A stretch of DNA of 64,000 bases from a virus, in the IMG/VR virus record IMGVR_UViG_3300037427_004270; one strand, written 5' to 3'. Made by a program: the position numbers and the translations under genes. Positions 8,157-51,015 of this stretch are shown piece by piece. The notes beneath the pieces are model-generated. The model made no database searches and had not been told where the DNA came from. It was given only the letters and a program-made list of their open reading frames with translations. Positions within the stretch are counted from its first letter, which is position 1, and every line of letters starts with the position of its first letter.

Positions 8157-8194
8157 CCGATCAATGTCTTCCTCTGTTCTATAACTGCAAAGAC

Positions 8195-8223
8195 ATAGTA
8201 TCATAAGCAACCTCCCATGTCAA
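8195..8223 (-). promoter_or_regulatory. sigma70-type promoter driving the tRNA/exonuclease/helicase/nrdJ operon
   Basis: TTGACA-17 bp-TACTAT with TG extension; the -35 overlaps the lon TGA stop. Confidence 0.7.
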
Positions 8224-10556
8224 GACACAAAAGCATGTTCCAAAACTTCGCCAATCTCTTTGACAAAGACGAATTCTACCTCTTCTTTAACAATGTCCGG
8301 GACATCAATTAAATCCTTCTCGTTCTTCGCTGGCATGAGGATCTTTTTAATACCTCCGCGATGTGCAGCCAGAACCTTCTCTTTGATACCCCCCACAGGC
8401 AGCACAAGCCCCCGTAAGGTTATTTCTCCAGTCATTGCGACCTCGTGGTTAACTTTCTTGCCAGTAAGCAGAGAAACGAGCGCAGTGGTTATCGTGATGC
8501 CTGCAGATGGGCCGTCTTTTGGGGTTGCACCTGCTGGGAAGTGGACATGAAAATCTTCCTCTTCCATGAACCTGCCCTCGTCGTCTCCAAGGCCCCACTC
8601 TTTAGCGCGTGAACGAACAAGACTTAGTGCTGTGTTGGCAGACTCTGACATCACTTCTCCGAGCTTACCAGTTAAGGATAATTTTCCTTTCCCTGGCATT
8701 TTTGTAGTTTCGATAAAAAGCAGGTCGCCTCCGACTGCAGTCCATGCAAGTCCGGTTGCAACGCCAGTCTTAGAAGTTCTTTCTGCCACTTCGTTCTCAA
8801 ACTTCTGAGGACCAAGGACTTCTTCAAGCTTATCAGAGGTGATAGCCACCTTCTCTTCTAATTCTTTTGCAATTTGAACTGCTATATAACGAGAGACTGC
8901 TGCCATTTGTCTTTTTAGGCCTCGGACTCCTGCCTCTCTGGTGTGTTTTTCAATAATCTCTTGAATAACCTCATCGGACATTTCAACCGAGTCTTCCTCG
9001 ACGCCATGCTTCTCTACTTCCTGCTTGATCAGGTGCCTCTTTGCAATCTGCAACTTCTCTTCGTGGGTATATCCACTTAGCTCGATAATTTCCATCCTAT
9101 CGCGCAAAGGCAGAGGGACGCCGGAAATACTATTTGCAGTTGCAATGAACAAAACAGAAGATAGATCAAAGTCCATCTCCAGATAGTGATCACTAAAGGT
9201 ATCATTTTGCTCTGGGTCTAAAACCTCCAACATAGCAGATGATGGATCTCCCCTGTAGTCTGAGGACATTTTGTCAATCTCATCTAAGAGGAATACTGGG
9301 TTATTTACCCCCACCTTCTTTAGGCCTTGTAAAATTCTACCTGGTAATGCGCCAACGTAGGTTCTTCTATGTCCCCTAATCTCCGACTCATCTTTGACAC
9401 CACCGAGAGAGATTCTATGGAACTTTCTCCCCAAGGCTGTCGCGATAGACTTGCCTAGAGATGTTTTACCAACTCCCGGAGGCCCTAACAAGCAAAGGAT
9501 TGGACCCTTCATATCATCTTTGAGCTTTCTCACTGCGAGATATTCAATGATGCGCTTCTTGACTTTATCTAGCCCGTAATGATCATCATCCAAAATGTCT
9601 TGGGCTTCTTCCAGATCATTTGAGTCAATGGTGCTAGCTGACCATGGCATATCTAAAATAGTTTCCACATAAGTTCTGGCTACATTATATTCAGCCTGGC
9701 TCGGCTGAATGTTCTTTAGTTTTTCAATCTCTTTATCAAAAGTCTTTTGAGCTTCGTCTGGTAGGTTTGCCTTTCTTGCTCTTTCTATAAAACCTGAAAC
9801 AAGATCGTCACCTTCTTCGTACTCGTTAAGTTCTTCTTTGATGACTTTCATTTGTTGACGCAAGTAGTACTCTCTCTGGGTCTTACTCATCTCTCCTCTT
9901 ACTTGGGAGTTTATCTTTTCCGAGATCTTTAACACTTCTGCTTGTTTTTCGAGCAGCGAAATGACCAAAGAGAGTCTCGCAGTTAGATTGACGGCCTCAA
10001 GAACTTCCTGCTTTTCGTCAATAGTAGCCTCTATATTGGCAGTAATTAAGTCGGCTAAATGGCCAGGGGTATCTATGGATTCCAACAACTGCTTGGCCAT
10101 CATCGGGATGTCAGGCAATAGGTCCATGACCTCAGAGGCCAAGCTTTGTAGGTGATCCATGAGGTCCATGACAACCTCGTCAACCTCTTGGTCTTCCACC
10201 ATCTCCACTTTTGCAACAAAGTATGGCTCTGTTTCTTCAAACTTCTTTACGGAAAAACGAGACACACCCTCAACAACAATGTTGTACCCAAAAGTGTCTG
10301 TTTTTGCAACTTTTATAATCTTCGCAAGAGTTCCAACACGATAAACGTCTTTTGCAGTGGGATCACTTACCTCTGGCTTGTGTTGGCTTACGATACCGAT
10401 ATACTTGTTCTCTCGTACTGCGTCCTCGATGAGCTTGACTGTCTTCTCTCTTCCAACAGTCAGTGGCATAATAGCACCGGGGAAGAAAACACTGTTCCTC
10501 AAAGGAACAATGGGCAGTGAAATTGTATTCTCGTTTTCTTTTGTTGTCATTTTCAT
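8220..10556 (-). CDS. lon: full-length ATP-dependent Lon protease
   Basis: 778 aa; N-domain LPIVPLRNSVFFPG, Walker A GPPGVGKTS, Walker B FLLDEIDK, catalytic Ser in PKDGPSAG and Lys in PVGGIKEK. Confidence 0.97.
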   Translation of the reverse strand: MKMTTKENENTISLPIVPLRNSVFFPGAIMPLTVGREKTVKLIEDAVRENKYIGIVSQHKPEVSDPTAKDVYRVGTLAKIIKVAKTDTFGYNIVVEGVSRFSVKKFEETEPYFVAKVEMVEDQEVDEVVMDLMDHLQSLASEVMDLLPDIPMMAKQLLESIDTPGHLADLITANIEATIDEKQEVLEAVNLTARLSLVISLLEKQAEVLKISEKINSQVRGEMSKTQREYYLRQQMKVIKEELNEYEEGDDLVSGFIERARKANLPDEAQKTFDKEIEKLKNIQPSQAEYNVARTYVETILDMPWSASTIDSNDLEEAQDILDDDHYGLDKVKKRIIEYLAVRKLKDDMKGPILCLLGPPGVGKTSLGKSIATALGRKFHRISLGGVKDESEIRGHRRTYVGALPGRILQGLKKVGVNNPVFLLDEIDKMSSDYRGDPSSAMLEVLDPEQNDTFSDHYLEMDFDLSSVLFIATANSISGVPLPLRDRMEIIELSGYTHEEKLQIAKRHLIKQEVEKHGVEEDSVEMSDEVIQEIIEKHTREAGVRGLKRQMAAVSRYIAVQIAKELEEKVAITSDKLEEVLGPQKFENEVAERTSKTGVATGLAWTAVGGDLLFIETTKMPGKGKLSLTGKLGEVMSESANTALSLVRSRAKEWGLGDDEGRFMEEEDFHVHFPAGATPKDGPSAGITITTALVSLLTGKKVNHEVAMTGEITLRGLVLPVGGIKEKVLAAHRGGIKKILMPAKNEKDLIDVPDIVKEEVEFVFVKEIGEVLEHAFVS

Positions 10557-30477: not shown

Positions 30478-33400
30478 TTATGATCCATATGTAAAAGATA
30501 TTCTAGATAAATAGCCTGTCCAGTCTTTGTGGGCAGTTATTCTTACTAATAAATAGTCTGCATTTCCTCCTGAAGTGCCTTCTAGAGTTGCTGTACGAAA
30601 GTTTATTCCGTATGAAGTGCCGCTACCGTCCACTGTCTGGTCCACATCGGCACCGCCGCCATTGTACCCACCGGAGCCATCTGTGGCAATATTTTCCGAC
30701 AAAGATGCTGGCCTTGCCATGTCTAGCCAGCCTGAATCTCCTGGTATTTTCACTTCCAGGTGAAAGTTCTTGCTTGCACCAAGAGAGCCTGTGTTGAATG
30801 CCCCACCTTTCGATATGAGGTTTGCATCTCCGCGCAAGGTTACAGTTGCCAAAGATACGTCGCCAACCTGGTTTGATCGAAAGTATCTGTAATATTCTCT
30901 TGTTGCAGCTGTTAGTGTTGAATAGTTCGGGTTTCCTGTGGGTGCCTGCAATGCTCCGCCATCATTAGCGCAGCGGAAGTCTCCAGACAAGCCACCAGTG
31001 AGAGGGGACATCAGTTTATCATTATATATTAACATCCCATTTGAATAAGTCGCATTGCCTCCGGCGTCATTAATGCTGACCGTTGAGCTCCATGCGTTAC
31101 CCGCATTAGTCACACTGTTTTGTGTCGCGTAACTACCAGACTGTAGCCTGTAGACCTCGCCATCAAAATGTTCAGTGGAGTTCAAGTCTGAACTTTGGCT
31201 TCCACTGAAAACTAAAAAGCTGTGCTTGCTTAATGTTGAAGTAGTGAGGTTTGACTTTAGGGGGTGCTTAACTCTGGACGAGACAGATGCAGTATGAGCT
31301 GTTGTTGCATGTGCACCGACCAATGAAGCCGACGGGTCGAACGTTATTGTTCCGGTGATCTGAAGTACTTGGTCTTGTGAGTTCGCAGTTGTTGCTAAAG
31401 CTGGCAAGGCTTTTGTTGCACCAGAGGTTGTGCCTGTGGAAGCAAGCCCTGAGCCGAAAGTTCCGATATGTGAAACAGTTGTGTTTGTTGTGGTGGGAAA
31501 CGAAATACCATCAGAAGATCTGTAATATACATTCTTATATACGTTCGAAGCTGCATAGGTAAACGAAGCAGAACAATCAACAAAGTACCTCACTCCAGAC
31601 AAGGAATAGAATACGCTACCCGAAAAGTTTGTTAAATTTGTAGCAGCAGCAGATAAGGCGTTGCTATCAGGGTCATTAACCCACTCTACATAATTTGTAA
31701 TAGTCTGACTAATACCAGATCCAGTATGAACAACCCTTGCATAATTCCAGCCATTTCTCTGGTCTGCTGCTCCAACTTGATATTTTCCTGTTCTGTAGAT
31801 TTTTGTATAATCTGGCAAACTATTGCCCGAATACAACCCTGGCTTATAAATACTCAGACTAACAAAACCTGAGCTGTTTGCATTTAATTCGCTGTCTGTT
31901 CCTGAGCCTGGGTTTCCTGACCCGACACTGGCACTGGCTAGGTCTATCGTATGAACAACCGCACCGTTCACTTCCAGTTTCAAACTTCCGGTTGCAGCAT
32001 TCTTAAAAGAGTTCGCAACATAACTTGTTCCATTTGCAGATATATCTTCATTGAGTTCGCCGTCTATAACTGTGGTGCCATCAAAGACACCAGCAATGTC
32101 GCCACTATCAAGAAAGTTACCGTTAAGATCAACAGCAGAGTTTCCAGTGTTTGTTGATACATTTGTGTATCCAGTGACGCCCTTTGAAGACCCAAAAGAA
32201 AGCTTAACGTCTGTGCCCGAATCATTGATGTCAATGTCGTCAAGGGCAGGGGCCTCAGTAGGGGCTGTTCCCGTACCTGCGCCGAAGGCTACAACAATGT
32301 CATCGACATAGCCGGTCCAAGATGTGTCTGCCTCTATTTTTAAAACAACATCGTCGCCATTCCCAACACCCTTTGTTCCGAAAGTTACATAGTTGGTAGC
32401 ATCAACTGAGTTGTCAAAAGCAAGAACATATGCTCCCGAACCTGCCGAAGTCTGATCATAAGTAAAAGCGGCAGCAACGTCCATGAAGCCAGTTGATCCT
32501 GGAATCTTAATGAATGCCCTAATTCTACCTGAGTTAAGTGCTGTTCCTGCTGGGACTATGGTCGTTCCACTGCCCTCGATTGTCAAGGTGATGTCTCTCT
32601 TGGTTGCTCCAGTAGAGTTACGGAAGTACCTAAAGAATGTTCTAGTTCCTGACTCTCCGGAATAGTTTGGGTTTCCAGCTGGTGCCAGTCCGAATGGACC
32701 TCCTTCAGAGTTGTCTCGGAAATCCCCACTCTGAATTGTGTTCAGTGGAGAATATAGCCTTGCACTGTATAGTTGCAGGCCGTCGGAATGTGTACCTGAT
32801 GCGGTCATGTGAGTTTGCGAGTTCCATGTGCCACTATCTACATCGGATTGAGAATCATAAGAACCAGAGAACAAGCGATAAGTTTCTTCTTTAAACCGCT
32901 CTCTTAGTGCTGTTGAGTTTCCAGACGGGTTATAAATTAAGATACCAGTAGAGCTTGCAGAACCACCGTTGGACAAGTCCGATTTCAATGGGTGTGCAAC
33001 ATTCACAGAAGATTGAATGGAGCCACTCAATGATTGTGTGCTAGTTGTTGCACTTCCTGTTATCTTCAGTACCTTTGTCTCGTCTTCTCCCGCGCCAAAG
33101 TTTAGCTCAGGAAAAGCTTGTGCGGATATAGAACAGTTGGTGGTAGTAAAAGATATATTCTGTGATGTGTATACATTCCTATATGCATTGCTAACCTCGA
33201 CAATATAGTTCGCTGATGCGCTTTTAAAATACTGTACCCCTGAGAGATATTTGCCGCCAAGTCCTGTCTCGTTTGCAAAACGAGCGTTGCTAGCTGCCAA
33301 AGCATTTGAGTTGTTGTCGTTAACCCACTGCACAAAGTTTGTTGTTTTGCTGCCCCATGAACCTGAGTGTTTTACCTGTGCATAGTTTAGGCCATTCCTT

Positions 33401-36400
33401 TGGTCTGCTGTGTGCACTCGATATTTTGCAGTCCTGTGTTGGAAAATACTAAAGGCATTCTGACTTCTGTCTTCTGCTGATGCAGTTACTGATACGTTTA
33501 TAAACCCTGAACCGTCTCCATTGACGTGAGTTCCTGCTCCAGAGCCTGGATTTCCGGAACCAATTGCTGAGGACGTTAAGTTGATGCTATGCTCAAGAGT
33601 TCCGTTAACATAAAGCTCTAGAATTCCTACCTCTGCGTTCCCGAAAGAATCTACTGGGTAATTGTTTACAGCGTTGTCGTAGGTGTCTGCAGTGACGTGA
33701 AAGTTGACAATGCCCTCTATATTGGAAGCTCCGTTGTAAGTTCCTCGGCGGAAGTCATCTCCAGATGTTGCAGATTCATATGTGCCGGTGACATTTAATG
33801 CAGAAAATGAACCTATAGAGGATACGTTCGTATATCCCGAAATTGCATTAGAGGAGCCAAAAGATAATTTTGAGGAAACGCCTGCCCCAGTTGAAGCATT
33901 TATTCTACTGACATCAGGTGCTGGGGATGGTGCTAAGATTTTTAATATCTCGTTAAACCTATCGACTGCAGTGCCGACTGGGGTTGTGGATATAAAGTCC
34001 GTAAAAAGGCCGTCGGTGTATGTGCCGTCTTCAGCTGTACCAATGTTTCCGGAACCACTAGCTGCACTACCAGAAGCTGCAGAGATCGTTACCTGTCCGG
34101 ATGATCCAGTAACCAAAGATATGTTAGACCCTGCTCTAAGATAAGCAGTGCCATCTCTAAGTTTTGTCAAAGAGCCTGTTATCGAAGTGGAAATCATGTT
34201 TCCAATTGTTATATTGTTTGTAGTTACACTTCCATTGTCTGTAACTTGATCAAGAGTGGATGCGGTGGATATGCCTGTTAGATTTGAGCCGTCGCCATAA
34301 AAAGCAGAGGCAGAAATGTTTACGGATGCCGATAAGTTTCCTGTGATTGTGGCATTACCAGTATGACTCCCGTCCCATTCTGCAGTGACGCCTGTTAGAT
34401 TTGATCCGTCGCCATAAAAGGCGGATGCTGATATATTTGCCGAGGCAGAAATTCCTGCAACAGATAATGTCCCTGTTGTAGTGGCTCCTCTGGCTACCAC
34501 AGTAGAGAGAGTGTCTGTTTCGGCGTAATAACTGGCAGTAGAAGCAAGAGCAACTGCGCCTGCAACATTGCTTCCAGTGATATAAGATGCAGTAAATGCA
34601 CTTGCAACCGTTCCAACAACATTGGAAGCACTTATCGAATTGGCGAGGCCTGCAGTCGTTGCAAAAGAGGCGGTGATACCTGTCAAGTTTGAGCCGTCTC
34701 CGTAAAAAGCGGAACCAGATACATTCCCTGTGATTGTGGCATTGCCAGTGTGGGTACCATCCCACTCTGCAGTGACGCCTGTTAGATTTGATCCGTCGCC
34801 ATAAAAGGCGGATGCTGATATATTCACAGATGCTGAAATGCCTCCTACAGACAAGGTTCCTGTTGTCTGGGGGTTTCTTGAGACTACAGTATGGAGAGTG
34901 TCTGTTTCGACATAATAACTAGCAGTAGAGGCAAGGGCCACTGGGCCAACAACGTTGCTGCCAGTAACAAAAGAAGCAGTAAACGCACTTGCCACTGTTC
35001 CATCAATATTGGAAGCACTCACTGAGTTGGCTAGCCCTGCCATCTTTGCATAAGAGGCAGTGAGTATAAAAGATGCTGTTTGTGCATTTGTTGCATTTGC
35101 TGCACTTGCAACTGTGCCAGAGATGTTTGAAGCAAGAACATAGCTCGCAGTTAACGCAGTCACAACATAAGATGCAGTTTGTGCATTAATAGCGTTTGTG
35201 GCGTTTGCCACTGTTCCGAAGACTTTGCTCCCAGTAATAAAGGAGGCGGTAAATGCATTCGCGACTGTACCGACAACGTTGCTGCCTGTAATAAACGAAG
35301 CAGTAAACGCACTTGCCACTGTTCCGACGACGTTCGAGGCGCTTACTGAATTAGCGAGCTGTGCGGTCGTTGCAAAAGAGGCAGTCTGTGCGTTAACTGC
35401 GTTTGTCGCATTTGCAACTGTTCCGACAATGTTACCTGCTGTTATGTTTGTTAAGTTCGCGCCTGATCCATAAAATGCGGAAGCAGATATGTTTAACGAT
35501 GCTGACAGAGAGCCTTGTATAGTCGCGTTGCCAACATGACTTCCATCCCACTCTGCAGTGACTCCAGTAATGCCAGAACCATCGCCGACAAAAGCAGATG
35601 CTGAGATATGGCCAGAAGCGGATAAGTTTGCTGTTACAGCTAGACTACCAGTGATGGAGGCACTCCCGACGTGGCTACCATCCCACTCTGCGGTGACTCC
35701 AGTGATATTTGCACCATCGCCGTAAAATGCTGATGCTGAGATATTTGCTGATGCTGAGATGCCTCCCACCGACAAAGTTGCCGTTGTGGTTGCCCCTCTT
35801 GCAGCCACAGTGGAGAGAGTGTCTGTTTCGGCGTAATAACTGGCAGTGGATGCCAGTGCAACTGCTCCGGTGACATTGCTTCCCAGAATATAAGAAGCAG
35901 TATGGGCCAAAGAAGCAGTATGAGCCAAAGAAGCAGTATGAGCCAAAGAAGCAGTGTGTGCGTTGTCTATTGTGCCAGTGAGTGTCGTAGTGGATGCAAT
36001 TGTTATCTCATTTGCATTGGAAGTTATGGTTACGTTGTTCCCTTCCTTAAAAGACTTAAATTGTAGCTCTGATCCCACTTTTTTGGCAAATGCGCCTTCT
36101 CCAGAGCCCAAATTCTTTACTGTGTTCTTTTCGCCCTCTACTTTTTGGATAAAAGACGCATTTTCGCATGCAGTAAGTGAATTTTCGTCTATTTCGTCGC
36201 CTGCAGGGACTTTCTTCTTACTTAAAGTGAAAACTCCCTGTCTAGCCCTGATACACTCTGCTATAATTTCGTATTTGTTGTTTACTTGTCCAAATAATAG
36301 CCTTGGGCTCTTCAAAATGGTGATTTCGTACAGAATATTGCCATATAAAAGGTAATCGCCCTCTCTTACAAACAAATTCTGGTCTTCAGTGAGTCTTTTC

Positions 36401-37320
36401 TTGTGAAACTTGACACTTATCTTAGATGTTTTGTCTAAGCCGAGGTAAGTTGTCTCTGTATCTGAACCTAACCACTCTACAGCGGCAAAAATCCTCATAG
36501 GAGGAAGAAAAGTCTTATCAATGCTCTCGCCGTATAGGTTATGGTAGTTGCTGTGCTTGATGCTGACAGGAAAATATACAACCTGCTGGCCAATGACCCT
36601 TTCTAGGACTTCATCACCAACTTGCTTTGTTAAATCTCTCTCTTTTTTACCAGTGAACAGTGGTGGTGGAGGACTATCCTGAGTTGTATACTCGTTATGC
36701 TTCACCTGATCATCTTTGCAGATAGCTCCGTTAACATCTCCTGAGCTTTCAACTATATTTATCTCGTTAACCGGGTCGTATGCATCAGCAATCAGCCTCG
36801 GGTCTTCCTCTTCTGATGCCACATAGTCCTGCTTTGGAAATGTGCCGTCCCTAGCTCTTACGCATTTCGCAGCTATTTCAATTTTTTCGTCTACTTGCCC
36901 GAACAATAGCCTTGGCTGTTGAAGTGTGACTACTTCGTAGTATTGATCTCCATAATAGACATAATCCCCTTCGCGCACAAACAGGTTCTTGTCTTCGGTC
37001 AACCTTCTTTTTTGAAAATGTACTGTAATAGACGACTTTTTCTCTATTCCAAAAGAGTCTGTCGTTGTTTCTTCGCCGTTCCACTCTACATAAGCATCTA
37101 TTTTAACGGGCGGCAGAAAGTTTTTATCTATGGCTTCCCCATAGAGATCATGAAAGTTAGTGTGCTTAACACTGATGGGATAATATACTAAAGCGGATTT
37201 AACAACTCTTTCAGAAATTTCATCTGAAACTTGTTTTGCTAAGTCTTTTTCTTTCTTTCCCGTAAAAAGCGGAGGGGGCGGAGCTTTCGGACGGTTCCAG
37301 ACATTATCGTTATCTGACAT
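30478..37320 (-). CDS. 2280-aa fusion: two tandem gp14-like head-closure domains plus a long Ser/Thr/Gly-rich fibre
   Basis: PPPPLFTGKKE..LYGE.IDK.FLPP..RLTED.NLFVREGDY occurs twice, followed by SASAFYGDG repeats and a duplicated large C-terminal domain. Confidence 0.85.
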   Translation of the reverse strand: MSDNDNVWNRPKAPPPPLFTGKKEKDLAKQVSDEISERVVKSALVYYPISVKHTNFHDLYGEAIDKNFLPPVKIDAYVEWNGEETTTDSFGIEKKSSITVHFQKRRLTEDKNLFVREGDYVYYGDQYYEVVTLQQPRLLFGQVDEKIEIAAKCVRARDGTFPKQDYVASEEEDPRLIADAYDPVNEINIVESSGDVNGAICKDDQVKHNEYTTQDSPPPPLFTGKKERDLTKQVGDEVLERVIGQQVVYFPVSIKHSNYHNLYGESIDKTFLPPMRIFAAVEWLGSDTETTYLGLDKTSKISVKFHKKRLTEDQNLFVREGDYLLYGNILYEITILKSPRLLFGQVNNKYEIIAECIRARQGVFTLSKKKVPAGDEIDENSLTACENASFIQKVEGEKNTVKNLGSGEGAFAKKVGSELQFKSFKEGNNVTITSNANEITIASTTTLTGTIDNAHTASLAHTASLAHTASLAHTASYILGSNVTGAVALASTASYYAETDTLSTVAARGATTTATLSVGGISASANISASAFYGDGANITGVTAEWDGSHVGSASITGSLAVTANLSASGHISASAFVGDGSGITGVTAEWDGSHVGNATIQGSLSASLNISASAFYGSGANLTNITAGNIVGTVANATNAVNAQTASFATTAQLANSVSASNVVGTVASAFTASFITGSNVVGTVANAFTASFITGSKVFGTVANATNAINAQTASYVVTALTASYVLASNISGTVASAANATNAQTASFILTASYAKMAGLANSVSASNIDGTVASAFTASFVTGSNVVGPVALASTASYYVETDTLHTVVSRNPQTTGTLSVGGISASVNISASAFYGDGSNLTGVTAEWDGTHTGNATITGNVSGSAFYGDGSNLTGITASFATTAGLANSISASNVVGTVASAFTASYITGSNVAGAVALASTASYYAETDTLSTVVARGATTTGTLSVAGISASANISASAFYGDGSNLTGVTAEWDGSHTGNATITGNLSASVNISASAFYGDGSNLTGISTASTLDQVTDNGSVTTNNITIGNMISTSITGSLTKLRDGTAYLRAGSNISLVTGSSGQVTISAASGSAASGSGNIGTAEDGTYTDGLFTDFISTTPVGTAVDRFNEILKILAPSPAPDVSRINASTGAGVSSKLSFGSSNAISGYTNVSSIGSFSALNVTGTYESATSGDDFRRGTYNGASNIEGIVNFHVTADTYDNAVNNYPVDSFGNAEVGILELYVNGTLEHSINLTSSAIGSGNPGSGAGTHVNGDGSGFINVSVTASAEDRSQNAFSIFQHRTAKYRVHTADQRNGLNYAQVKHSGSWGSKTTNFVQWVNDNNSNALAASNARFANETGLGGKYLSGVQYFKSASANYIVEVSNAYRNVYTSQNISFTTTNCSISAQAFPELNFGAGEDETKVLKITGSATTSTQSLSGSIQSSVNVAHPLKSDLSNGGSASSTGILIYNPSGNSTALRERFKEETYRLFSGSYDSQSDVDSGTWNSQTHMTASGTHSDGLQLYSARLYSPLNTIQSGDFRDNSEGGPFGLAPAGNPNYSGESGTRTFFRYFRNSTGATKRDITLTIEGSGTTIVPAGTALNSGRIRAFIKIPGSTGFMDVAAAFTYDQTSAGSGAYVLAFDNSVDATNYVTFGTKGVGNGDDVVLKIEADTSWTGYVDDIVVAFGAGTGTAPTEAPALDDIDINDSGTDVKLSFGSSKGVTGYTNVSTNTGNSAVDLNGNFLDSGDIAGVFDGTTVIDGELNEDISANGTSYVANSFKNAATGSLKLEVNGAVVHTIDLASASVGSGNPGSGTDSELNANSSGFVSLSIYKPGLYSGNSLPDYTKIYRTGKYQVGAADQRNGWNYARVVHTGSGISQTITNYVEWVNDPDSNALSAAATNLTNFSGSVFYSLSGVRYFVDCSASFTYAASNVYKNVYYRSSDGISFPTTTNTTVSHIGTFGSGLASTGTTSGATKALPALATTANSQDQVLQITGTITFDPSASLVGAHATTAHTASVSSRVKHPLKSNLTTSTLSKHSFLVFSGSQSSDLNSTEHFDGEVYRLQSGSYATQNSVTNAGNAWSSTVSINDAGGNATYSNGMLIYNDKLMSPLTGGLSGDFRCANDGGALQAPTGNPNYSTLTAATREYYRYFRSNQVGDVSLATVTLRGDANLISKGGAFNTGSLGASKNFHLEVKIPGDSGWLDMARPASLSENIATDGSGGYNGGGADVDQTVDGSGTSYGINFRTATLEGTSGGNADYLLVRITAHKDWTGYLSRISFTYGS
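30549..30557 (-). promoter_or_regulatory. putative late promoter motif ACTATTTAT
   Basis: About 80 nt upstream of the 477-aa gene; a GCTATTTAT variant lies at 30507-30515. Confidence 0.5.
35893..35961. repeat. 18-bp coding tandem repeat (LAHTAS units)
   Basis: agaagcagtatg(a/g)gccaa x3 plus a partial fourth copy, in frame. Confidence 0.9.
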
Positions 37321-41609: not shown

Positions 41610-44600
41610 TTATAAGTCTGATGCAAATGGGGATGGATACCATTCACCATTCTCACAGAAGTACCATTTATTGACATTTCCAAATGTTTGTTGCGTAATC
41701 GCATCTGCACTTGCCCAGCTTGAGCCGGAGACAATATAGATCATCGAACCGTTGTATGCACCTGGAGCTGCTGCCATTGTGTCCAAAACATTAACATCAG
41801 AAGCGTTGTCCTGACGGAAGTGTGTAAGACTCAAAAGACCAGTAACCGTAGTAACATCAGTTCTAGCATTACCAAGAGCTGAGTCACCCTGGACAGTCAA
41901 TGTGCTTATCGTTGAGCCACTTGCATAAATGTGTGATGCTGACAAAGGAGCTGAAGTAAAACTTACATTTCCTGTTGCGCCACCCAAAGATGCACTTGTT
42001 GTGAGGCCGAACTGAAAGCGGTCTGCTGACTCGTCCCAGATAAACAATGCGTCAACTGCTGTGCCTCTCTTCATGACAAGGCCAGTATCGTTGACGTTGG
42101 TCGCGCCATTGTCTGTATCACCACTACCACTGTTCAGCATAATCAAGTTATCGTAGAACGTTGTATTGGATGATGAGACATAAGTAACAGAGCCCTGTAC
42201 AGTCAAGTTTCCACCAACAGTCAAGCCAGTGTTCAAAGACAAGGAGTCATCTGAAGCATTGTGCGTGATAGTTGTTGGGGAACCAGCACCGAAGCTAAGA
42301 ACTGCGCCGTCACTTAACAATTTAAGGTCGTCACCAATAACAGCGTCTAATGCAACAGACAAACCGCCGTCGGTCTGCAAAGAGCCGTCAGTTGTTGAAG
42401 TTGCGTTAGTTGTATCATCAGTCTTTAATACGCCAGAGAAAGTACCAGTAGTACCTGCAACTGTTGTAAACGTACCTGCCGCTGCAGAAGCTGCACCGAT
42501 AACAGTGCCGTCAATCGCACCAGAGTCAATGTCAACGTTAGTTGAATTGTAGTTGGCATGATCAACGTTTGAGCCCAACGTTCCAAGATTGGAAGTCGTT
42601 GCAGTCAAGGTTGTGACAGTTGCCGCTGCAGCACTTGCTGCACCGATGGTAGTACCGTCGATTGCGCCACCGTTGATGTCAACAGTAGTCAAAGTAGACG
42701 TGCCAGTTGCAGTGATCGCATCAATGTAACCGTGGTCAATATGAGCTTCGGCCCACTGCTTTGCAGATGTACCCAAGTCGCTTGTGCTATCCAAAATAGG
42801 AATCAAGTCACTATCAAACTGACCAGTTACAGTAACGCTGTCTGTGGTAGCGTTACCTAAGTCAACGTCACCAGTTGCAGACAATGTTGTTGCAGTCAAA
42901 GCTTGAACAGCAGTTGTACCAGCGGAGACACTTAGGCCACCTTTGGTCACTGCCAAAGCATTGTTTGCAGTCAACGTGCTCTCAACGTGCATCGTGCCGC
43001 CGACTGACGCATTGCCAGAACCAGAGACAGTGCCCATAACAGTTAAGTTATTACCCAGGCTTGTTGCACCAGCAATTTGCAGTGTGCTAGAACCAGAGAT
43101 GGTTGTAAACTTTGCAGTTGTTGCAGAGTTTGCACCGATAGCAGTACCGTCGATAGCACCACCGTTGATGTCAACAGTAGTCAAAGTAGACGTGCCAGTT
43201 GCAGTGATCGCATCAATGTAACCGTGGTCAATATGAGCTTCGGCCCACTGCTTTGCAGTTGTACCTAAGTCTCTCGCACTGTCAGTTGATGGAATCAAAT
43301 CACTATCAAATTGTCCTGTTGCGGTGATGGTGTCCGTGGTTGCGTTACCTAAGTCAACGTCACCAGTTGCAGACAAGGTTGTTACAGTTGCTGCTGCTGC
43401 AGAGTTTGCACCAATAACAGCTCCATCAATAGCACCGGAGTCAATGTTGACGTTAGTCATTGCTTCATCAGAGAAGTTAACAGCACCAGCCTGCTCGTAA
43501 GCACCGAGCTTAGTAACAGTCAAAGTATTATTAACTTGATCAAAAGTAATACCACTATCGTAGTAAAGGTTTGCAGATGAAGCTGCAGAGGCAGAAACCA
43601 ATGCGAACGTCAATGTATCACCCGCCTCAACGCCGTCAGTTTGAGCAACACTCGCACCTACGCCTGTCAAGTTGGAGCCGTCACCATGAAAGGTTTTGGC
43701 ATGCATTGCGGAAGCAGACAGTGGAGCTGAGTCAAAAGCTAAGTTTCCAGTCTGAGTTCCTAACGAGCCCGACTTTAATGTTGCAATTTGGAAACGGTCT
43801 GCTGACTCGTCCCAGAACATTGCTGCATCAGTTGCCGCGCCGCGCTTCATGATGAGGCCAATATCATTGATGTTGGTCGCACCATTATCTGCATCACTAC
43901 TGCCACTGTTCAAGACAATCAAGCTGTCATTAAGAACAGTGTTGGAAGAAGACACATAAGTTACAGAGCCTTGCACAGTTAAGCTTCCGCCAACAGTCAA
44001 GCCAGTGTTCAAAGACAAGGAGTCATCTGAAGCATTGTGCGTGATAGTTGTTGGGGAACCAGTACCGAAACTAAGAACTGCACCGTCACTTAACAACTTG
44101 AGGTCGTCACCAATAACAGCGTCTAGCGCAACAGACAAACCACCGTCGGTCTGCAAAGAGCCGTCAGTTGTTGAAGTTGCATTAGTTGTGTCGTCAGTCT
44201 TCAAGATACCAGAGAAAGTACCTGTAGTACCTGCAACTGTTGTAAACGTACCTGCTGCTGCACTTGCTGCACCGATGATAGTACCGTCGATAGCGCCAGA
44301 GTCAATGTCAACGTTAGTTGAATTGTAGTTAGCGTGATCAACGTTTGAGCCCAACGTTCCAAGATTGGAAGTCGTTGCAGTCAAGGTTGTGACAGTTGCC
44401 GCTGCTGCAGAAGCTGCACCGATGGTAGTACCGTCGATAGCACCACCGTTGATGTCAACAGTAGTCAACGTGGACGTGCCAGTTGCTGTGATGTCATCAA
44501 TGTAACCATGATCAACATGAGCTTCTGCCCATTGCTTGGCAGATGTACCCAAGTCTCTTGCACTGTCGGTTGATGGGATCAAGTCGCTATCAAACTGACC

Positions 44601-47600
44601 AGTCACAGTAACTGTGTCTGTGGTAGCATTACCCAAGTCAACGTCACCAGTAGCAGACAACGTTGTTGCAGTCAAAGCTTGTACAGCAGTTGTGCCAGCA
44701 GAAACCGTTAAGCCTCCCTTGGTCACTGCCAAAGCGTTGTTTGCAGTCAATGTGCTTTCAACATGCATTGTGCCACCAACTGATGCATTGCCAGAACCAG
44801 AAACAGTTCCCTTGACAGTTAGGTTGTTACCTAAGCTAGTTGCACCAGCGATGCCTAGAGTACCAGAACCAGAAAGGTTGGTACCAGTCAAAGCTGCGAA
44901 TGTACCTGCTGCTGCAGAGTTTGCACCGATGATAGTGCCGTCGATAGCGCCAGAGTCAATGTCAACGTTAGTTGAATTGTAGTTAGCGTGATCAACGTTT
45001 GAGCCCAACGTTCCAAGATTGGAAGTCGTTGCAGTCAAGGTTGTGACAGTAGCTGCAGCAGCACTTGCTGCACCGATGGTAGTACCGTCGATAGCACCGC
45101 CATTAATGTCAACAGTAGTCAACGTGGACGTGCCAGTTGCTGTGATGTCATCAATGTAACCATGATCAACATGAGCTTCAGCAAACTGCAAAGCAGATGT
45201 ACCCAAGTCTCTTGCACTGTCGGTTGATGGAACAATGTCGCTGTCAAAGCGGCCTGTTGCAGTGATCGTATCAGAGGTAGCGTTACCTAAGTCAACGTCA
45301 CCAGTTGCAGACAAAGCTGCGACAGTAGTTGAACCAGCAGAGACAACCAAGTTGCCGAGAGTAACAGTCAAGTTACCTGCTTCAACCTCTACGTTGTCTT
45401 CAACAGTCATGGTTGATCCGAATGCTGCGCCACCTTGTACAGACAAAGTGCCAGAGCCGGACATGTTACCAGCAACATTAAGTGTGCCAGAGCCAGACAT
45501 GTTGCCTTCAACAGACAAGTTATTACCCAAGCTTGTTGCACCTGCAATTTGTAATGTGCTAGAGCCAGAGATGGTTGTAAACTTCGCAGTTGTTGCAGAG
45601 TTCGCACCGATAGCAGTACCGTCGATAGCACCAGAGTCAATGTTAACATTGGTCATAGCTTCGTCGGAAAAGTTAACAGCACCAGCCTGCTCGTAAGCAC
45701 CAAGCTTAGTTGTAGTCAAGGTGTTTGTATTATTGTTGTACAGAAGTTGTCCGTCAGTCAAAATACTTGCACCAGAGCCTGCTGCGGTAGTACTACCAAG
45801 AAGGTAAACAGTCGCATCATTATCACCACCATCAGCGGTAGTAATTGTGTCTGCGGAGATACCTGTCAAGTTAGAACCGTCACCAGTAAAGAACTGTGCA
45901 TGTACATGGGAAGCAGACAGTGGAGCTGAGTCAAAGCTCAAGTTTCCAGTCTGAGTTCCTAACGAGCCCGACTTTAATGTTGCAATTTGGAAACGGTCTG
46001 CTGACTCGTCCCAGAACATTGCTGCATCAGTTGCTGCTCCACGCTTCATGATAAGACCAACATCGTTGATGTTAGTTGCGCCGTTATCTGAATCACTACT
46101 ACCACTGTTCAAGACAATCAAGCTGTCATTGAGTACAGTGTTAGAAGAAGAAACATAAGTCACAGAACCTTGTACGGTTAAGCTTCCACCAACAGTCAAA
46201 CCAGTGTTCAGAGATAATGAATCATCTGAAGCGTTGTGTGTAATAGTTGTTGGAGAACCAGTACCGAAACTAAGAACTGCACCGTCACTTAACAACTTGA
46301 GGTCATTCCCGAGAACTGCATCTTTAACAACAGATAGGCCACCATCGGTCTGCAAAGAACCGTCGGTAGTAGTAGTTGCTTCAGTTGTGTCATCAGTCTT
46401 TAAGACGCCAGAGTAAGTACCTGTCGTACCCGCAACTGTTGTAAACGTACCTGCCGCTGCAGAGGCTGCACCGATAACAGTGCCGTCAATCGCACCAGAG
46501 TCAATGTCAACGTTAGTTGAATTGTAGTTGGCATGATCAACGTTTGAGCCCAACGTTCCAAGATTGGAAGTCGTTGCAGTCAAGGTTGTGACAGTTGCCG
46601 CTGCTGCAGAAGCTGCACCGATAACAGTGCCGTCAATCGCACCAGAGTCAATGTCAACGTTAGTTGAATTGTAGTTGGCATGATCAACGTTTGAACCCAA
46701 CGTTCCAAGGTTGGAAGTCGTTGCAGTCAATGTTGTGACAGTTGCCGCTGCAGCACTTGCTGCACCGATGGTAGTACCATCAATCGCGCCGCCATTAATG
46801 TCAACAGTGGTCAACGTGGACGTGCCAGTTGCAGTGATTGCATCAATGTAACCATGATCAACGTGAGCTTCGGCCCACTGCTTTGCAGATGTACCCAAGT
46901 CGCTTGTGCTATCTAAAATAGGAATCAAGTCACTATCAAACTGACCAGTTACAGTAACGCTGTCTGTGGTAGCATTACCTAAGTCAACATCGCCCGTAGC
47001 AGACAAAGCTGCGACAGTAGTTGAACCAGCAGAGACAACCAAGTTGCCGAGAGTAACTGTTAAGTTACCTGCTTCAACTTCTACATTATCTTCAACAGTC
47101 AGGGTTGAACCCAAAGCTGCAGCACCTTGTACAGACAAAGTACCAGAACCAGACATGTTGCCAGCAATATTCATGTTGCCAGAACCAGAGATAGCCCCTT
47201 CGACTGACAAGTTGTTACCCAAGCTTGTTGCACCTGCAATTTGCAATGTGCTAGAGCCAGAGATGGTTGTAAACTTTGCAGTTGTTGCAGAGTTTGCACC
47301 GATGGCAGTACCATCAATCGCGCCGCCATTGATGTCAACAGTAGTCAACGTGGATGTACCAGTTGCAGTGATTGCATCAATATAGCCATGATCAATGTGA
47401 GCTTCGGCCCACTGCTTTGCAGTTGTACCCAAGTCTCTTGCACTGTCAGTTGACGGAATCAAGTCACTATCGAACTGGCCAGTTACAGTAACTGTATCAG
47501 AAGTAGCATTACCCAAGTCAACGTCACCAGTTGCAGACAAAGCTGCGACAGTGGTTGAGCCAGCAGAGACGACCAAGTTACCGAGAGTAACAGTCAAGTT

Positions 47601-50507
47601 ACCCGCTTCAACTTCTACATTATCTTCAACAGTTAAGGTAGAACCCAAAGCTGCGCCGCCTTGTACAGACAAGGTGCCTGAACCAGACATGTTACCAGCT
47701 ACGTTAAGAGTTCCTGATCCGGAAATATTTCCTTCAACAGAAAGGTTGTTACCCAAGCTTGTTGCACCTGCAATCTGCAATGTACTAGAGCCAGAGATGG
47801 TTGTAAACTTTGCAGTTGTTGCAGAGTTCGCACCGATGGCGGTACCATCAATAGCGCCGGAGTCAATGTTGACGTTGGTCATTGCTTCATCAGAGAAGTC
47901 AACCGCGCCAGCTTGCTCATAAGCACCAAGCTTAGTTGTAGTCAAGGTATTCGTATTGTTGTTATATACGAGCTGCCCGTCAGTCAAGATACTTGCACCA
48001 GCGCCTGCTGCAGTGGTACTACCAAGAAGGTAAACAGTCGCATCGTTATCGCCACCGTCAGCGGTAGTAATTGTGTCTGCGGAAATACCTGTCAAGCTAG
48101 AACCGTCGCCATGGAATGTCTGAGCATGCATTTGAGAAGCAGACAATGGAGCTGAGTCAAAAGCTAAGTTTCCAGTCTGAGTTCCTAACGAGCCCGACTT
48201 TAATGTTGCAATTTGGAAACGGTCTGCTGACTCGTCCCAGAACATTGCTGCATCAGTTGCCGCGCCGCGCTTCATGATGAGGCCAATATCATTGATGTTG
48301 GTCGCACCATTATCTGCGTCACTACTGCCACTATTCAAGACAATCAAGCTGTCATTAAGAACAGTGTTAGAAGAAGACACATAAGTTACAGAACCTTGTA
48401 CGGTCAAGCTTCCGCCAACAGTCAAGCCAGTGTTCAGAGACAAAGAGTCATCTGAAGCATTATGCGTGATAGTTGTTGGTGAACCTGTACCGAAGCTAAG
48501 AACTGCGCCGTCACTTAACAACTTGAGGTCGTCACCGATAACAGCATCTAATGCAACAGATAAACCACCGTCGGTCTGCAAAGAGCCGTCAGTTGTTGAG
48601 GTTGCGTTAGTTGTGTCATCAGTCTTCAAGATGCCAGAGAAAGTACCAGTAGTACCTGCAACAGTTGTGAATGTACCTGCTGCTGCACTTGCTGCACCAA
48701 TGGTAGTACCATCAATCGCACCAGAGTCAATGTCAACGTTAGTTGAATTGTAGTTAGCGTGATCAACGTTTGAACCCAACGTTCCAAGATTGGAAGTCGT
48801 TGCAGTCAAGGTTGTGACAGTTGCCGCTGCAGCACTTGCTGCACCGATGGTAGTACCGTCGATAGCACCGCCATTAATGTCAACAGTGGTCAGCGTGGAC
48901 GTGCCAGTTGCTGTGATGTCATCAATGTAACCATGATCAACATGAGCTTCAGCAAACTGCAAAGCAGATGTACCCAAGTCTCTTGCACTATCAGTTGATG
49001 GAACAATGTCGCTGTCAAAGCGGCCTGTTGCAGTGATCGTATCAGAGGTAGCGTTACCTAAGTCAACGTCACCAGTTGCAGACAATGTTGTTGCAGTCAA
49101 AGCTTGAACAGCAGTTGTACCAGCGGAGACAGTCAAGCCACCTTTGGTAACAGCCATAGCATTGTTCGCAGTCAACGTGCTCTCAACGTGCATCGTGCCG
49201 CCGACTGACGCATTGCCAGAACCAGAGACAGTGCCCATAACAGTTAAGTTACTACCCAAGCTTGTTGCACCAGCAATTTGCAGTGTGCTAGAGCCAGAGA
49301 TGGTTGTAAACTTTGCAGTTGTTGCAGAGTTTGCACCGATAGCAGTACCATCAATTGCACCACCGTTGATGTCAACAGTAGTCAATGTGGACGTGCCAGT
49401 TGCAGTGATTGCATCAATGTAACCGTGATCAACATGAGCTTCGGCCCACTGCTTTGCAGATGTACCTAAGTCTCTTGCACTATCAGTTGATGGCACCAAG
49501 TCACTATCAAATTGGCCTGTTGCCGTGATAGTGTCTGTGGTAGCATTACCCAAGTCAACGTCACCAGTTGCAGACAATGTTGTCACAGTTGCCGCAGCAG
49601 GAGTTGTCCCACCAAGGACTGCATCAACAGTACCACCGTTAATATCGGCAGTAGTTGCAACCAAGCTAGCTGCAGTAGTTACACCAGCAGCACTAACGCT
49701 AAGCTTATCAGTACCGTCTGTTTGCTCAACATTAAACAATTGAGCTGTTTGGCTACCAACGCCTTTAACATTCAAAGTGATCTCGTCAGTAGTGTCACCG
49801 GTGATTGTGGCACCAGCAGCAACGACCAGTTGATCATTTGCAGTCAAAGTTGTGAATGTACCAGCAGCAGGAGTTGCTGCACCAACAGTTGTACCATCAA
49901 TTGCGCCGCCGTTGATGTCAACAGTAGTCAAGGTAGACGTGCCAGTCGCAGTGATGTTATCAATGTGACCAGTGTCAATATGAGCTTCGGCAAACTGTAA
50001 AGCAGATGTACCTAAGTCTCTTGCACTATCGGTTGATGGAACAATGTCACTGTCAAAGCGACCTGTTGCGGTGATGGTGTCAGAGGTAGCATTACCTAAG
50101 TCAACATCGCCTGTAGCAGAAATATTCACAGTTCTAAACGTAGAACTTGCTGGGTTATATGAAATAGAACCCGAATGAATATACTGAGTTTCAGAGCCGC
50201 CAGAGGCAGAGACAAACGTTAAATGTAAATAATTGTCTGTGTCTGCTGGGCTAGTAGAAGCATTTTCCACTGAGCCTCCAACGCCTGATAAATTAGAACC
50301 GTTACCATAAAAATATGATGCCGATATCTTTCCGCTAGCAGACAATGATAAGCCTGTAGCGTTGTTGTCTCCGCCTGCAGCGGAAGACGAAATAGTTAAT
50401 GAGCCACTAAAATAGTGAGCACCATTATCCAGAGAACGAAATTTGGTGTCTTTCCAATTCGCTCCAGAGCCGGATATAACGGCTATACCTCTTGGATCAA
50501 TAGGCAT
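41610..50507 (-). CDS. 2965-aa modular repeat fibre/adhesin
   Basis: Uninterrupted ORF with SD GGAGGG; Thr/Ala/Gly/Ser/Asp-rich beta-fibre repeats; unique N- and C-terminal caps. Confidence 0.88.
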   Translation of the reverse strand: MPIDPRGIAVISGSGANWKDTKFRSLDNGAHYFSGSLTISSSAAGGDNNATGLSLSASGKISASYFYGNGSNLSGVGGSVENASTSPADTDNYLHLTFVSASGGSETQYIHSGSISYNPASSTFRTVNISATGDVDLGNATSDTITATGRFDSDIVPSTDSARDLGTSALQFAEAHIDTGHIDNITATGTSTLTTVDINGGAIDGTTVGAATPAAGTFTTLTANDQLVVAAGATITGDTTDEITLNVKGVGSQTAQLFNVEQTDGTDKLSVSAAGVTTAASLVATTADINGGTVDAVLGGTTPAAATVTTLSATGDVDLGNATTDTITATGQFDSDLVPSTDSARDLGTSAKQWAEAHVDHGYIDAITATGTSTLTTVDINGGAIDGTAIGANSATTAKFTTISGSSTLQIAGATSLGSNLTVMGTVSGSGNASVGGTMHVESTLTANNAMAVTKGGLTVSAGTTAVQALTATTLSATGDVDLGNATSDTITATGRFDSDIVPSTDSARDLGTSALQFAEAHVDHGYIDDITATGTSTLTTVDINGGAIDGTTIGAASAAAATVTTLTATTSNLGTLGSNVDHANYNSTNVDIDSGAIDGTTIGAASAAAGTFTTVAGTTGTFSGILKTDDTTNATSTTDGSLQTDGGLSVALDAVIGDDLKLLSDGAVLSFGTGSPTTITHNASDDSLSLNTGLTVGGSLTVQGSVTYVSSSNTVLNDSLIVLNSGSSDADNGATNINDIGLIMKRGAATDAAMFWDESADRFQIATLKSGSLGTQTGNLAFDSAPLSASQMHAQTFHGDGSSLTGISADTITTADGGDNDATVYLLGSTTAAGAGASILTDGQLVYNNNTNTLTTTKLGAYEQAGAVDFSDEAMTNVNIDSGAIDGTAIGANSATTAKFTTISGSSTLQIAGATSLGNNLSVEGNISGSGTLNVAGNMSGSGTLSVQGGAALGSTLTVEDNVEVEAGNLTVTLGNLVVSAGSTTVAALSATGDVDLGNATSDTVTVTGQFDSDLIPSTDSARDLGTTAKQWAEAHIDHGYIDAITATGTSTLTTVDINGGAIDGTAIGANSATTAKFTTISGSSTLQIAGATSLGNNLSVEGAISGSGNMNIAGNMSGSGTLSVQGAAALGSTLTVEDNVEVEAGNLTVTLGNLVVSAGSTTVAALSATGDVDLGNATTDSVTVTGQFDSDLIPILDSTSDLGTSAKQWAEAHVDHGYIDAITATGTSTLTTVDINGGAIDGTTIGAASAAAATVTTLTATTSNLGTLGSNVDHANYNSTNVDIDSGAIDGTVIGAASAAAATVTTLTATTSNLGTLGSNVDHANYNSTNVDIDSGAIDGTVIGAASAAAGTFTTVAGTTGTYSGVLKTDDTTEATTTTDGSLQTDGGLSVVKDAVLGNDLKLLSDGAVLSFGTGSPTTITHNASDDSLSLNTGLTVGGSLTVQGSVTYVSSSNTVLNDSLIVLNSGSSDSDNGATNINDVGLIMKRGAATDAAMFWDESADRFQIATLKSGSLGTQTGNLSFDSAPLSASHVHAQFFTGDGSNLTGISADTITTADGGDNDATVYLLGSTTAAGSGASILTDGQLLYNNNTNTLTTTKLGAYEQAGAVNFSDEAMTNVNIDSGAIDGTAIGANSATTAKFTTISGSSTLQIAGATSLGNNLSVEGNMSGSGTLNVAGNMSGSGTLSVQGGAAFGSTMTVEDNVEVEAGNLTVTLGNLVVSAGSTTVAALSATGDVDLGNATSDTITATGRFDSDIVPSTDSARDLGTSALQFAEAHVDHGYIDDITATGTSTLTTVDINGGAIDGTTIGAASAAAATVTTLTATTSNLGTLGSNVDHANYNSTNVDIDSGAIDGTIIGANSAAAGTFAALTGTNLSGSGTLGIAGATSLGNNLTVKGTVSGSGNASVGGTMHVESTLTANNALAVTKGGLTVSAGTTAVQALTATTLSATGDVDLGNATTDTVTVTGQFDSDLIPSTDSARDLGTSAKQWAEAHVDHGYIDDITATGTSTLTTVDINGGAIDGTTIGAASAAAATVTTLTATTSNLGTLGSNVDHANYNSTNVDIDSGAIDGTIIGAASAAAGTFTTVAGTTGTFSGILKTDDTTNATSTTDGSLQTDGGLSVALDAVIGDDLKLLSDGAVLSFGTGSPTTITHNASDDSLSLNTGLTVGGSLTVQGSVTYVSSSNTVLNDSLIVLNSGSSDADNGATNINDIGLIMKRGAATDAAMFWDESADRFQIATLKSGSLGTQTGNLAFDSAPLSASAMHAKTFHGDGSNLTGVGASVAQTDGVEAGDTLTFALVSASAASSANLYYDSGITFDQVNNTLTVTKLGAYEQAGAVNFSDEAMTNVNIDSGAIDGAVIGANSAAAATVTTLSATGDVDLGNATTDTITATGQFDSDLIPSTDSARDLGTTAKQWAEAHIDHGYIDAITATGTSTLTTVDINGGAIDGTAIGANSATTAKFTTISGSSTLQIAGATSLGNNLTVMGTVSGSGNASVGGTMHVESTLTANNALAVTKGGLSVSAGTTAVQALTATTLSATGDVDLGNATTDSVTVTGQFDSDLIPILDSTSDLGTSAKQWAEAHIDHGYIDAITATGTSTLTTVDINGGAIDGTTIGAASAAAATVTTLTATTSNLGTLGSNVDHANYNSTNVDIDSGAIDGTVIGAASAAAGTFTTVAGTTGTFSGVLKTDDTTNATSTTDGSLQTDGGLSVALDAVIGDDLKLLSDGAVLSFGAGSPTTITHNASDDSLSLNTGLTVGGNLTVQGSVTYVSSSNTTFYDNLIMLNSGSGDTDNGATNVNDTGLVMKRGTAVDALFIWDESADRFQFGLTTSASLGGATGNVSFTSAPLSASHIYASGSTISTLTVQGDSALGNARTDVTTVTGLLSLTHFRQDNASDVNVLDTMAAAPGAYNGSMIYIVSGSSWASADAITQQTFGNVNKWYFCENGEWYPSPFASDL
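42000..50125. repeat. mosaic of near-identical direct repeats inside the giant gene
   Basis: By manual count: SATGDVDLGNAT module x9, KTDDTT...WDESADRFQ module x4, SNVDHANYNSTN x6, ATTAKFTTISGSS x5, TKLGAYEQAGAV x3. Confidence 0.9.
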
Positions 50508-50577: not shown

Positions 50578-51015
50578 TTAACTTAGATGAAAGAACATGT
50601 CAGGTACCCACGCACTATTGCGCGAAAAATACCATTTGTGGCCTTGCGAGAAAGCCTGAGCTGCGTCATTGCTGACTGCGACAGAACCTCCATTGGCAAT
50701 TGCACCTTTCGTAAGGCCAGTTGAATTTAGATATATAACGTGTCCATTGTAATCTTCTGGCGCTGCAGCCAGAGTATTTAAAATACCAATATCATTTTCA
50801 GAACCTGAAGCATATACTGGAATTCTAAAGACGCCATGAACCTTCGTCACATCGTTAACGTTGTTTGTCTTTCTACCTAACATCGTACTACCAGAGATGG
50901 CCAATGCTTTATTGGACCCTCCCGCAGAAATGATAGCCGAACCATCGTCCAAAAACCTATGGACATTGGTCGGTGATGAACCGGTAGTGACTTGCAACCC
51001 TCTTCTTCCTACCAT
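50578..51015 (-). CDS. 145-aa minimal member of the fibre family
   Basis: Paralog of the N-terminal part of the 370-aa protein (identical GLTKGAIANGGSVAVSNDAAQ); ends with the shared KWYFSRNSAW domain. Confidence 0.85.
   Translation of the reverse strand: MVGRRGLQVTTGSSPTNVHRFLDDGSAIISAGGSNKALAISGSTMLGRKTNNVNDVTKVHGVFRIPVYASGSENDIGILNTLAAAPEDYNGHVIYLNSTGLTKGAIANGGSVAVSNDAAQAFSQGHKWYFSRNSAWVPDMFFHLS

Follow-up and report, generated by a model that had tools for sequence, protein, structure and literature searches.

Stoppers of the phage neck are usually regarded as small proteins that form rings from a single domain, and neck fibres are viewed as distinct proteins docked on the adaptor. A locus in the virus record IMGVR_UViG_3300037427_004270, from an uncultured marine T4-like phage, raises the question of how these two kinds of protein can come as one polypeptide and what such a polypeptide would mean for the symmetry of the neck. 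In the 64-kb stretch of this record that we analyzed (64,000 nucleotides, hereafter the window), an open reading frame (ORF) at 30478-37320 on the minus strand encodes a protein of 2280 amino acids (aa) that begins with two copies of a predicted stopper domain and continues into a C-terminal part of ~1,900 residues with the appearance of a fibre. Thus, stopper and putative neck fibre are united here in a single chain, in which the ring domain occurs twice. Our literature search found no report of a tandem or pseudo-hexameric stopper, or of a fibre fused to a stopper.

Two diverged copies of one domain in an uninterrupted frame

The frame of the 2280-aa protein is uninterrupted and starts 9 nt past the stop codon of an upstream 449-aa gene, with a GGAGAG ribosome-binding site preceding the start. 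When residues 6-161 are aligned with residues 209-364, no gap is needed and identity is 60% (E 6e-75), which defines a repeat unit of ~160 aa, and the family profile locates the two domains, denoted D1 and D2, at the positions given in Table 1. In a DNA comparison of the two copies, identity is 60.5% overall and 36.5% at third codon positions (saturated), and no exact match extends beyond 11 nt; because of this divergence and the saturation of third positions, the repeat must be old and is not a duplication created during assembly. The preliminary description of this DNA, made from the sequence alone, had placed two full copies of one domain at the start of the ORF, directly downstream of a gp13 gene, and had seen them as fused to a ~1,900-aa C-terminal part. 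All of this is borne out, by the ungapped repeat with which the profile positions agree, by the 9-nt gap that follows a gene matching PHROG 211, and by the open frame that leads into a long repetitive C-terminal region. A stop codon or misassembly separating the domains, which the same description had named as fatal to its reading, was not found: the frame is open, the copies have diverged, and 54 proteins are built alike.

The repeated domain has the fold of neck stoppers

The AlphaFold2 models are of moderate confidence (predicted local distance difference test, pLDDT, 66 and 72). A Foldseek search initiated with the D1 model (pLDDT 66) identified T4 gp14 as the best match (9mkb_0, E 4.8e-5, probability 1.00; the 9mkb_0 and 9lu4-7_M chains were verified as gp14), the gp14 chains being followed by ~30 other neck stoppers, and nearly all of the top ~35 rows of the structure comparison belong to this class. 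VIA-align of the D1 model yielded Z scores of up to 10.7. In the two-domain model, D1 scored 10.1 with the T1 stopper (9l0e_A) and 9.6 with lambda FII and XM1, and for D2 the values were 11.7 for the phage 812 stopper (8qkh_A; root mean square deviation 3.7 over 136 aligned residues) and 10.2-10.5 for T4 gp14 (125-131 residues aligned, gp14 residues 24-180). What the predicted domain shares with T4 gp14 (PDB 9MKB, 9LU4-9LU7) and with the stopper class at large (phage 812 gp97, lambda gpFII, T1, SPP1 gp16, Pam3, XM1) is a core formed by a beta-barrel, plus a loop and a helix at the N-terminus.

The structural relationship is clearer than the one detectable in sequence. With both domains as queries, no Pfam family was found at E values up to 10, and PDB sequence and profile searches with the domain returned chance matches only, gp14 not being among them. 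PHROG 679 ('head closure Hc2') was hit with E 0.006 by D1 alone, and just one of the 42 scanned family members matches it. Alignment of the family profile with the T4 gp14 sequence by hhalign gave E 5e-4 at a probability of 31%, with the motifs YGE/FGE, REGD/KEGD and YEI/FEI in register and with a hairpin at residues 77-103, present in both domains, aligned with the gp14 stopper loop (89-112). The match is confined to gp14 residues 24-180, and no homologous counterpart was detected of the acidic C-terminal tail of ~80 residues through which gp14 binds gp15; an acidic stretch is found at the start of the D1-D2 linker. Given that the fold and the gene order agree, we conclude from the predicted structures that this is a stopper, or head-closure, domain; membership in the T4 gp14 sequence family proper is marginal and is not established by these comparisons. 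Of the preliminary designation of the domain as gp14-like head closure, the fold class accordingly stands, with T4 gp14 as the best structural match, and the assignment to the gp14 sequence family is marginal.

The fused gene replaces the single-domain stopper gene

Searches of metagenomes revealed four forms of the protein, namely a stand-alone protein of ~162 aa (>1,000 clusters; ~64% identity, 59-69% for the marine relatives), one domain followed by ~180 aa (about 40 clusters, 304-360 aa), one domain followed by a long extension of 400-1070 aa (at least 18 clusters), and the tandem form with two N-terminal domains at constant spacing (54 protein clusters, 356-1918 aa, drawn from JGI, ENA, Tara, NCBI and Logan assemblies). 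The clade is thus common in ocean metagenomes, and the natural series from a single domain through a single domain with a fibre to a tandem with a fibre is material for structural and evolutionary tests.

In every relative examined, an adaptor ortholog with 50-89% identity is encoded upstream of the stopper; orthologs of the gp15-like protein are encoded in each relative after the stopper and before the sheath; and the adaptor-stopper-terminator order, which corresponds to 13, 14, 15 in T4, is kept in about 15 of them. The slot between the adaptor and gp15-like genes holds a single 162-aa gene in the single-type loci and the fused gene in the tandem-type loci L003-L009, which are independent IMG/VR contigs with the same gene order. 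In each of the 84 IMG/VR loci, exactly one ORF contains the domain or domains. The 162-aa stoppers of the sister phages belong to the same family and the same slot and differ in that they are single-domain proteins that lack a fibre and occur exactly once in a complete genome, as in a complete single-type genome of 189.6 kb. A tandem-type record of 119 kb (66% complete) has two fused copies of the domain and no others, and a search of the window at maximum sensitivity detected no further copy; the separate single-domain gp14 for which the preliminary description had advised a check is therefore missing both from the window and from the 119-kb relative. Because the fused gene replaces the small one in its slot and each locus has a single domain-bearing ORF, the 2280-aa protein is the stopper of this phage and not an extra copy, within the scope of the window and its relatives.

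The cultured relatives identified are Flavobacterium phage immuto and Microcystis phage Mel-JY01 (WWT39320, 174 aa), with ~25% identity in the domain and a single small protein in the corresponding slot; a megablast search with 6 kb gave no match among cultured phages. The stopper homolog of immuto is unannotated: it is a 182-aa ORF at 7998-8543 (+) of NC_055915.1 (L001), recognized by the profile with 60 bits, over which the record shows two tiny ORFs on the opposite strand, gp059 and gp058.

Several further homologs (P0245, P0178, P0176, P0246, P0257, P0272 and P0287) carry N-terminal extensions of 110-550 aa with a beta-rich, decoration-like look, so that the stopper would appear to tolerate additions at either end. 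We considered whether these could be adaptor-stopper fusions, which would lead to 12 stopper positions, and rejected this possibility given that the extensions show no relationship to the gp13-like adaptor.

One old duplication and equal constraint on both copies

In the phylogenetic tree, the D2 sequences form one clade, with support of 98-99 in the Shimodaira-Hasegawa-like approximate likelihood ratio test (SH-aLRT), and the D1 sequences form another, except for two fragments, probably of truncated tandem proteins. These clades are sisters nested in the marine single-domain clade; therefore, a single old duplication is behind all 54 tandem proteins. The copies have since evolved under equal constraint: mean pairwise identity is 0.804 among the 54 D1s and 0.798 among the D2s (r = 0.79), all 37 family-invariant residues are retained in both D1 and D2, the PPPPLFTGKKE arm at the N-terminus is kept in both along with the helix that follows, and the hairpin that aligns with the stopper loop is of equal length. 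A handful of differences between the copies are fixed (W8Y, Q10R, Y47F and H101K), and the stem branch of D2 is longer than that of D1 (0.25 vs 0.095), which is consistent with the copies having partly divided their labour since they arose.

The domain spacing is also conserved, at 201-204 aa in the 54 proteins, with a linker of ~45 residues and a motif, DPR..CDP..E..VL.G..GG.G..PC, common to most of them. Two linker cysteines (..ACDP.. and ..QPC..) are conserved in most tandem proteins; in the subclade of the window protein, which includes P0122 and P0123, the first of these is replaced by tyrosine and much of the linker is rewritten.

A second case of a doubled stopper domain is P0362 (753 aa, two JGI contigs), with domains at 3-146 and 192-324 that are 52% identical to each other and ~20% identical to those of the window protein, followed by a Ser/Thr-rich extension of 425 aa. 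Its domains are sisters (SH-aLRT 99) inside a remote single-domain clade, in a part of the tree that carries a long-branch warning, and on these sequences P0362 is best read as an independent stopper duplication. It forms one cluster only, and no locus for it was found in IMG/VR or JGI metagenomes.

A long shaft and two distal modules

The part of the protein that follows D2 starts with a connector, residues 366 to ~520 (~150 aa), that is conserved in all tandem relatives. A windowed self-search of the protein revealed ~130-aa super-repeats at residues 424-1100 of an Ala/Ser/Thr/Gly-rich shaft, in which Pfam detects the Chlorovirus glycoprotein repeat PF06598 (E 5.4e-9). The distal portion consists of two modules, M1 and M2, of ~550-590 aa each and ~40% identical to one another. 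Residues 366-2280 showed no PDB sequence match, no useful PHROG match and no similarity to fibritin or to a solved fibre, and for M1 and M2 there was no match in Pfam/PHROGs or PDB sequences and no usable one in the ESM Atlas. These modules without known relatives would be globular fibre tips and are candidates for host adhesion. At 2280 aa, the protein has the longest stopper-fused fibre encountered in our searches, the next complete ORF having at most 2206 aa and that of L005 being incomplete at >2121 aa.

The M1-M2 pair is also present in P0123, P0166, P0169, P0174, L004 and L005, whereas P0231, a single-domain stopper, has one M module. The occurrence of this module once on a single-domain stopper and twice on tandem stoppers points to a swapping of tips among single-domain and tandem proteins. 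It would also yield six M modules per neck with either architecture, a coincidence to which we attach little weight; the more general idea that tandem forms regularly double the distal module, giving six tips per neck, was rejected because only M-type fibres do so and most tandem proteins have no large internal repeat.

A tentative model of the neck

The stopper of T4 and phage 812 is a hexamer on a 12-mer adaptor (PMC12929629, PMC12886913), and in T4 the N-terminal loop and helix of gp14 wrap the gp13 adaptor loop (PMC12929587). In the tail of T5, the duplicated domain of pb6 allows three chains to form a pseudo-hexameric ring in which the C-terminal decorations are halved (PMC5717097). Combining these precedents with the features described above, we propose that the 2280-aa protein would act as the sole stopper of the phage, binding after DNA packaging beneath the dodecameric gp13-like adaptor, closing the channel and presenting a docking face to the gp15-like terminator of the tail. 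Following the old tandem duplication, D1 and D2 would most likely occupy ordinary, alternating ring positions, so that three chains would build a pseudo-hexamer comparable to T5 pb6 and the gp27/VgrG hubs, with the conserved ~45-residue linker along the ring exterior. The C-terminal ~1,900 residues would exit on the outer side of the ring as covalently attached neck fibres; the three fibre chains leaving the neck might form one off-axis trimer or three separate fibres, and each would end in two large globular modules, probably serving adhesion. The barrel of gp14 terminates on the outer, lower side of its ring, and the gp14 tail extends from there to gp15; therefore a C-terminal fusion can project outward.

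The fold, the place of the gene, its substitution for the single-domain gene, and the age, conservation and equal constraint of the copies are shown by the comparisons above. We infer that both domains sit in the ring, that the virion has three chains, and that the fibre projects from the neck. The equal conservation of D1 and D2, the conserved linker and the second, independent duplication all fit a pseudo-hexamer, and the arrangement with both domains in a ring of three chains and with three fibre chains leaving the neck is one for which we see the balance as even. Its wider corollary, namely that a pseudo-hexamer with at least two independent origins among T4-like phages whose stoppers bear fibres exists in a virion ring for which none is known, conferring a three-fold neck with fibres that are covalently attached and half as many as usual, is a tentative proposition that falls a little short of that balance.

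Compared with known systems, the window protein shares with T4 gp14 the gene slot between adaptor and terminator, and differs from it in having two domains per chain instead of one, plus the C-terminal fibre. As in T5 pb6 and gp27/VgrG, one chain contains two fused copies of a domain that has the tube/stopper superfold and forms rings; those are tube or hub proteins, whereas the protein described here is a predicted neck stopper known from sequence and monomer models, and, unlike in those proteins, its domains are joined by the long linker and are not placed as ring neighbors by AlphaFold2. A long appendage at the head-tail junction of a myovirus, here predicted, is likewise found in T4 fibritin (wac, which adjoins genes 13 and 14) and in the gp82-gp81-gp80 fibres of cyanophage A-1(L), where ring and fibre symmetries must also be reconciled (PMC12929629, PMC10966104). 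These known neck fibres are separate trimeric proteins: fibritin sits non-covalently on domain III of gp13 (PMC12929629), and in A-1(L) gp82 of each of the five fibres docks non-covalently on the adaptor gp5 (PMC10966104). The fibre of the window protein, by contrast, is part of the stopper chain. If three chains do build the ring, the neck would join the T5 tube and the baseplate hub among the rings that have been moved from six-fold to three-fold symmetry by duplication, and this would be one way in which T4-like phages abundant in the sea control how many appendages they carry.

Several observations weigh against the three-chain ring. An AlphaFold2 monomer of residues 1-375, in which each domain reaches pLDDT ~80, has a predicted template modelling score of 0.39, linker pLDDT <50 and no defined packing of D1 on D2, and no PDB chain gave an alignment spanning D1 and D2 together. 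In at least 18 clusters, a stopper with a single domain carries a fibre of 400-1070 aa, and therefore the duplication is not needed to carry a fibre. The stoppers of phiKZ and SPP1 are 12-mers (PMC13250141; 7z4w match), which makes other ring counts possible, and an off-axis site on the neck makes a single trimeric fibre from chains 120 degrees apart awkward. The Pfam, PDB, PHROG and Atlas searches found nothing on the oligomeric state of the fibre or its ligand, and the search for other stopper genes in this phage covers the 64-kb window, so that a second one might lie elsewhere in its genome. The proposal in the preliminary description that the duplication solves a 6-to-3 symmetry mismatch is weakened by these data, considering that single-domain stoppers carry long fibres and that six chains can give two trimers; more likely, the effect of the duplication is to cut the fibres to half their number or to lock in two states that alternate among the subunits.

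Alternative arrangements

The virion could instead contain six chains, with one domain of each forming the hexameric ring and the other either forming a second, stacked ring or lying outside the ring, where it would space or anchor the six fibre chains, assembled into two trimers or into six individual fibres. The folds of stopper, terminator and tube do stack naturally, the single-domain fibre forms show that a neck tolerates six fibre chains, AlphaFold2 gives no side-by-side packing, and the longer stem branch of D2 together with its fixed differences could reflect a distinct role. We nevertheless consider six chains rather unlikely. A domain with a different partner, or with none, should drift on the surfaces concerned, whereas D1 and D2 evolve at equal rates, have all 37 invariant residues in common and both keep the hairpin and the helix as well as the PPPPLFTGKKE arm, which in T4 gp14 grips the adaptor loop (PMC12929587); moreover, the gp15-like partner has the same length and position in tandem-type and single-type phages.

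Six tandem chains might also fill twelve stopper positions, as in phiKZ gp99 and SPP1 gp16, with D1 and D2 genetically fixing alternating conformations. There is precedent in the phiKZ stopper, a 12-mer whose subunits alternate between conformations A and B (PMC13250141), and in the SPP1 gp16 12-mer, the fold of which matches (7z4w), and six chains would give two trimers with no mismatch to resolve. Such a ring seems quite improbable for a phage that is T4-like in its capsid protein, adaptor and terminator, given that the stopper is hexameric in T4 and phage 812, which provide the strongest fold matches (PMC12929629, PMC12886913), and that a ring of this size would require 12 copies of the stopper in the single-domain relatives, of which we see no sign. 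That the fused gene is an artefact, whether of faulty assembly, of an overlooked stop or frameshift, or of gene calling that joined a stopper and a fibre gene, is hardly credible: the window is an assembly from an uncultured source, and beyond this we found no point in favor of an artefact, whereas the 2280 codons are open, the DNA copies differ too much to share exact runs above 11 nt, the layout recurs with constant spacing in 54 clusters from five assembly sources, and the fused gene is present in the independent contigs L003-L009. The three-chain pseudo-hexamer thus remains our preferred reading.

Neighboring genes

The order of genes in the window is as follows: major capsid protein (gp23-type, Pfam E 3.8e-74), adaptor, stopper-fibre, 477-aa gene, gp15-like gene, sheath and tube (Table 1). 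The PHROG family to which the adaptor belongs bears the name that is also borne by T4 gp13.

Table 1. Features of the stopper-fibre gene and of the genes around it, in window coordinates
Feature	Coordinates	Strand	Evidence
D1 stopper/head-closure domain, residues 1-163	36832..37320	-	Family profile, 285 bits; VIA-align and Foldseek matches
Inter-domain linker, residues 164-206, acidic start	36703..36831	-	Length conserved in tandem proteins
D2 stopper/head-closure domain, residues 207-365	36226..36702	-	Family profile, 266 bits; VIA-align matches
Connector and A/S/T/G-rich repeat shaft, residues 366-1129	33934..36225	-	Conservation, super-repeats, PF06598
Distal module M1, residues 1130-1685	32266..33933	-	~40% identical to M2 over full length
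Distal module M2, residues 1686-2280 and stop codon	30478..32265	-	Paralog of M1
gp13-like head-tail adaptor, 449 aa	37330..38679	-	PHROG 211 'head-tail adaptor Ad2', E 1.5e-10
Accessory gene, 477 aa	29037..30470	-	Only beside long M1-M2 type fibres
gp15-like tail terminator/sheath stabiliser, 273 aa	28212..29033	-	Pfam T4-gp15_tss, E 0.0023, below cut-off
Tail sheath, 957 aa	25231..28104	-	PHROG 23 tail sheath, E 4e-58

Orthologs of the 477-aa gene were found in L003 and L004 and not in L006 and L008, which encode tandem proteins of 615 aa, and the gene may encode an accessory fibre or an assembly factor. The last ~70 residues of its product resemble the C-terminal ends of two fibre proteins encoded elsewhere in the window, of 2965 aa (41610-50507) and 145 aa (50581-51015).

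Some single-type relatives (L064 / L061, 10473-12547 (+)) have two adjacent paralogs of the gp15-like terminator, of 281 and 407 aa, which are 41-45% identical to the 273-aa protein of the window; here it is the next ring down that is duplicated, with the two genes remaining separate.

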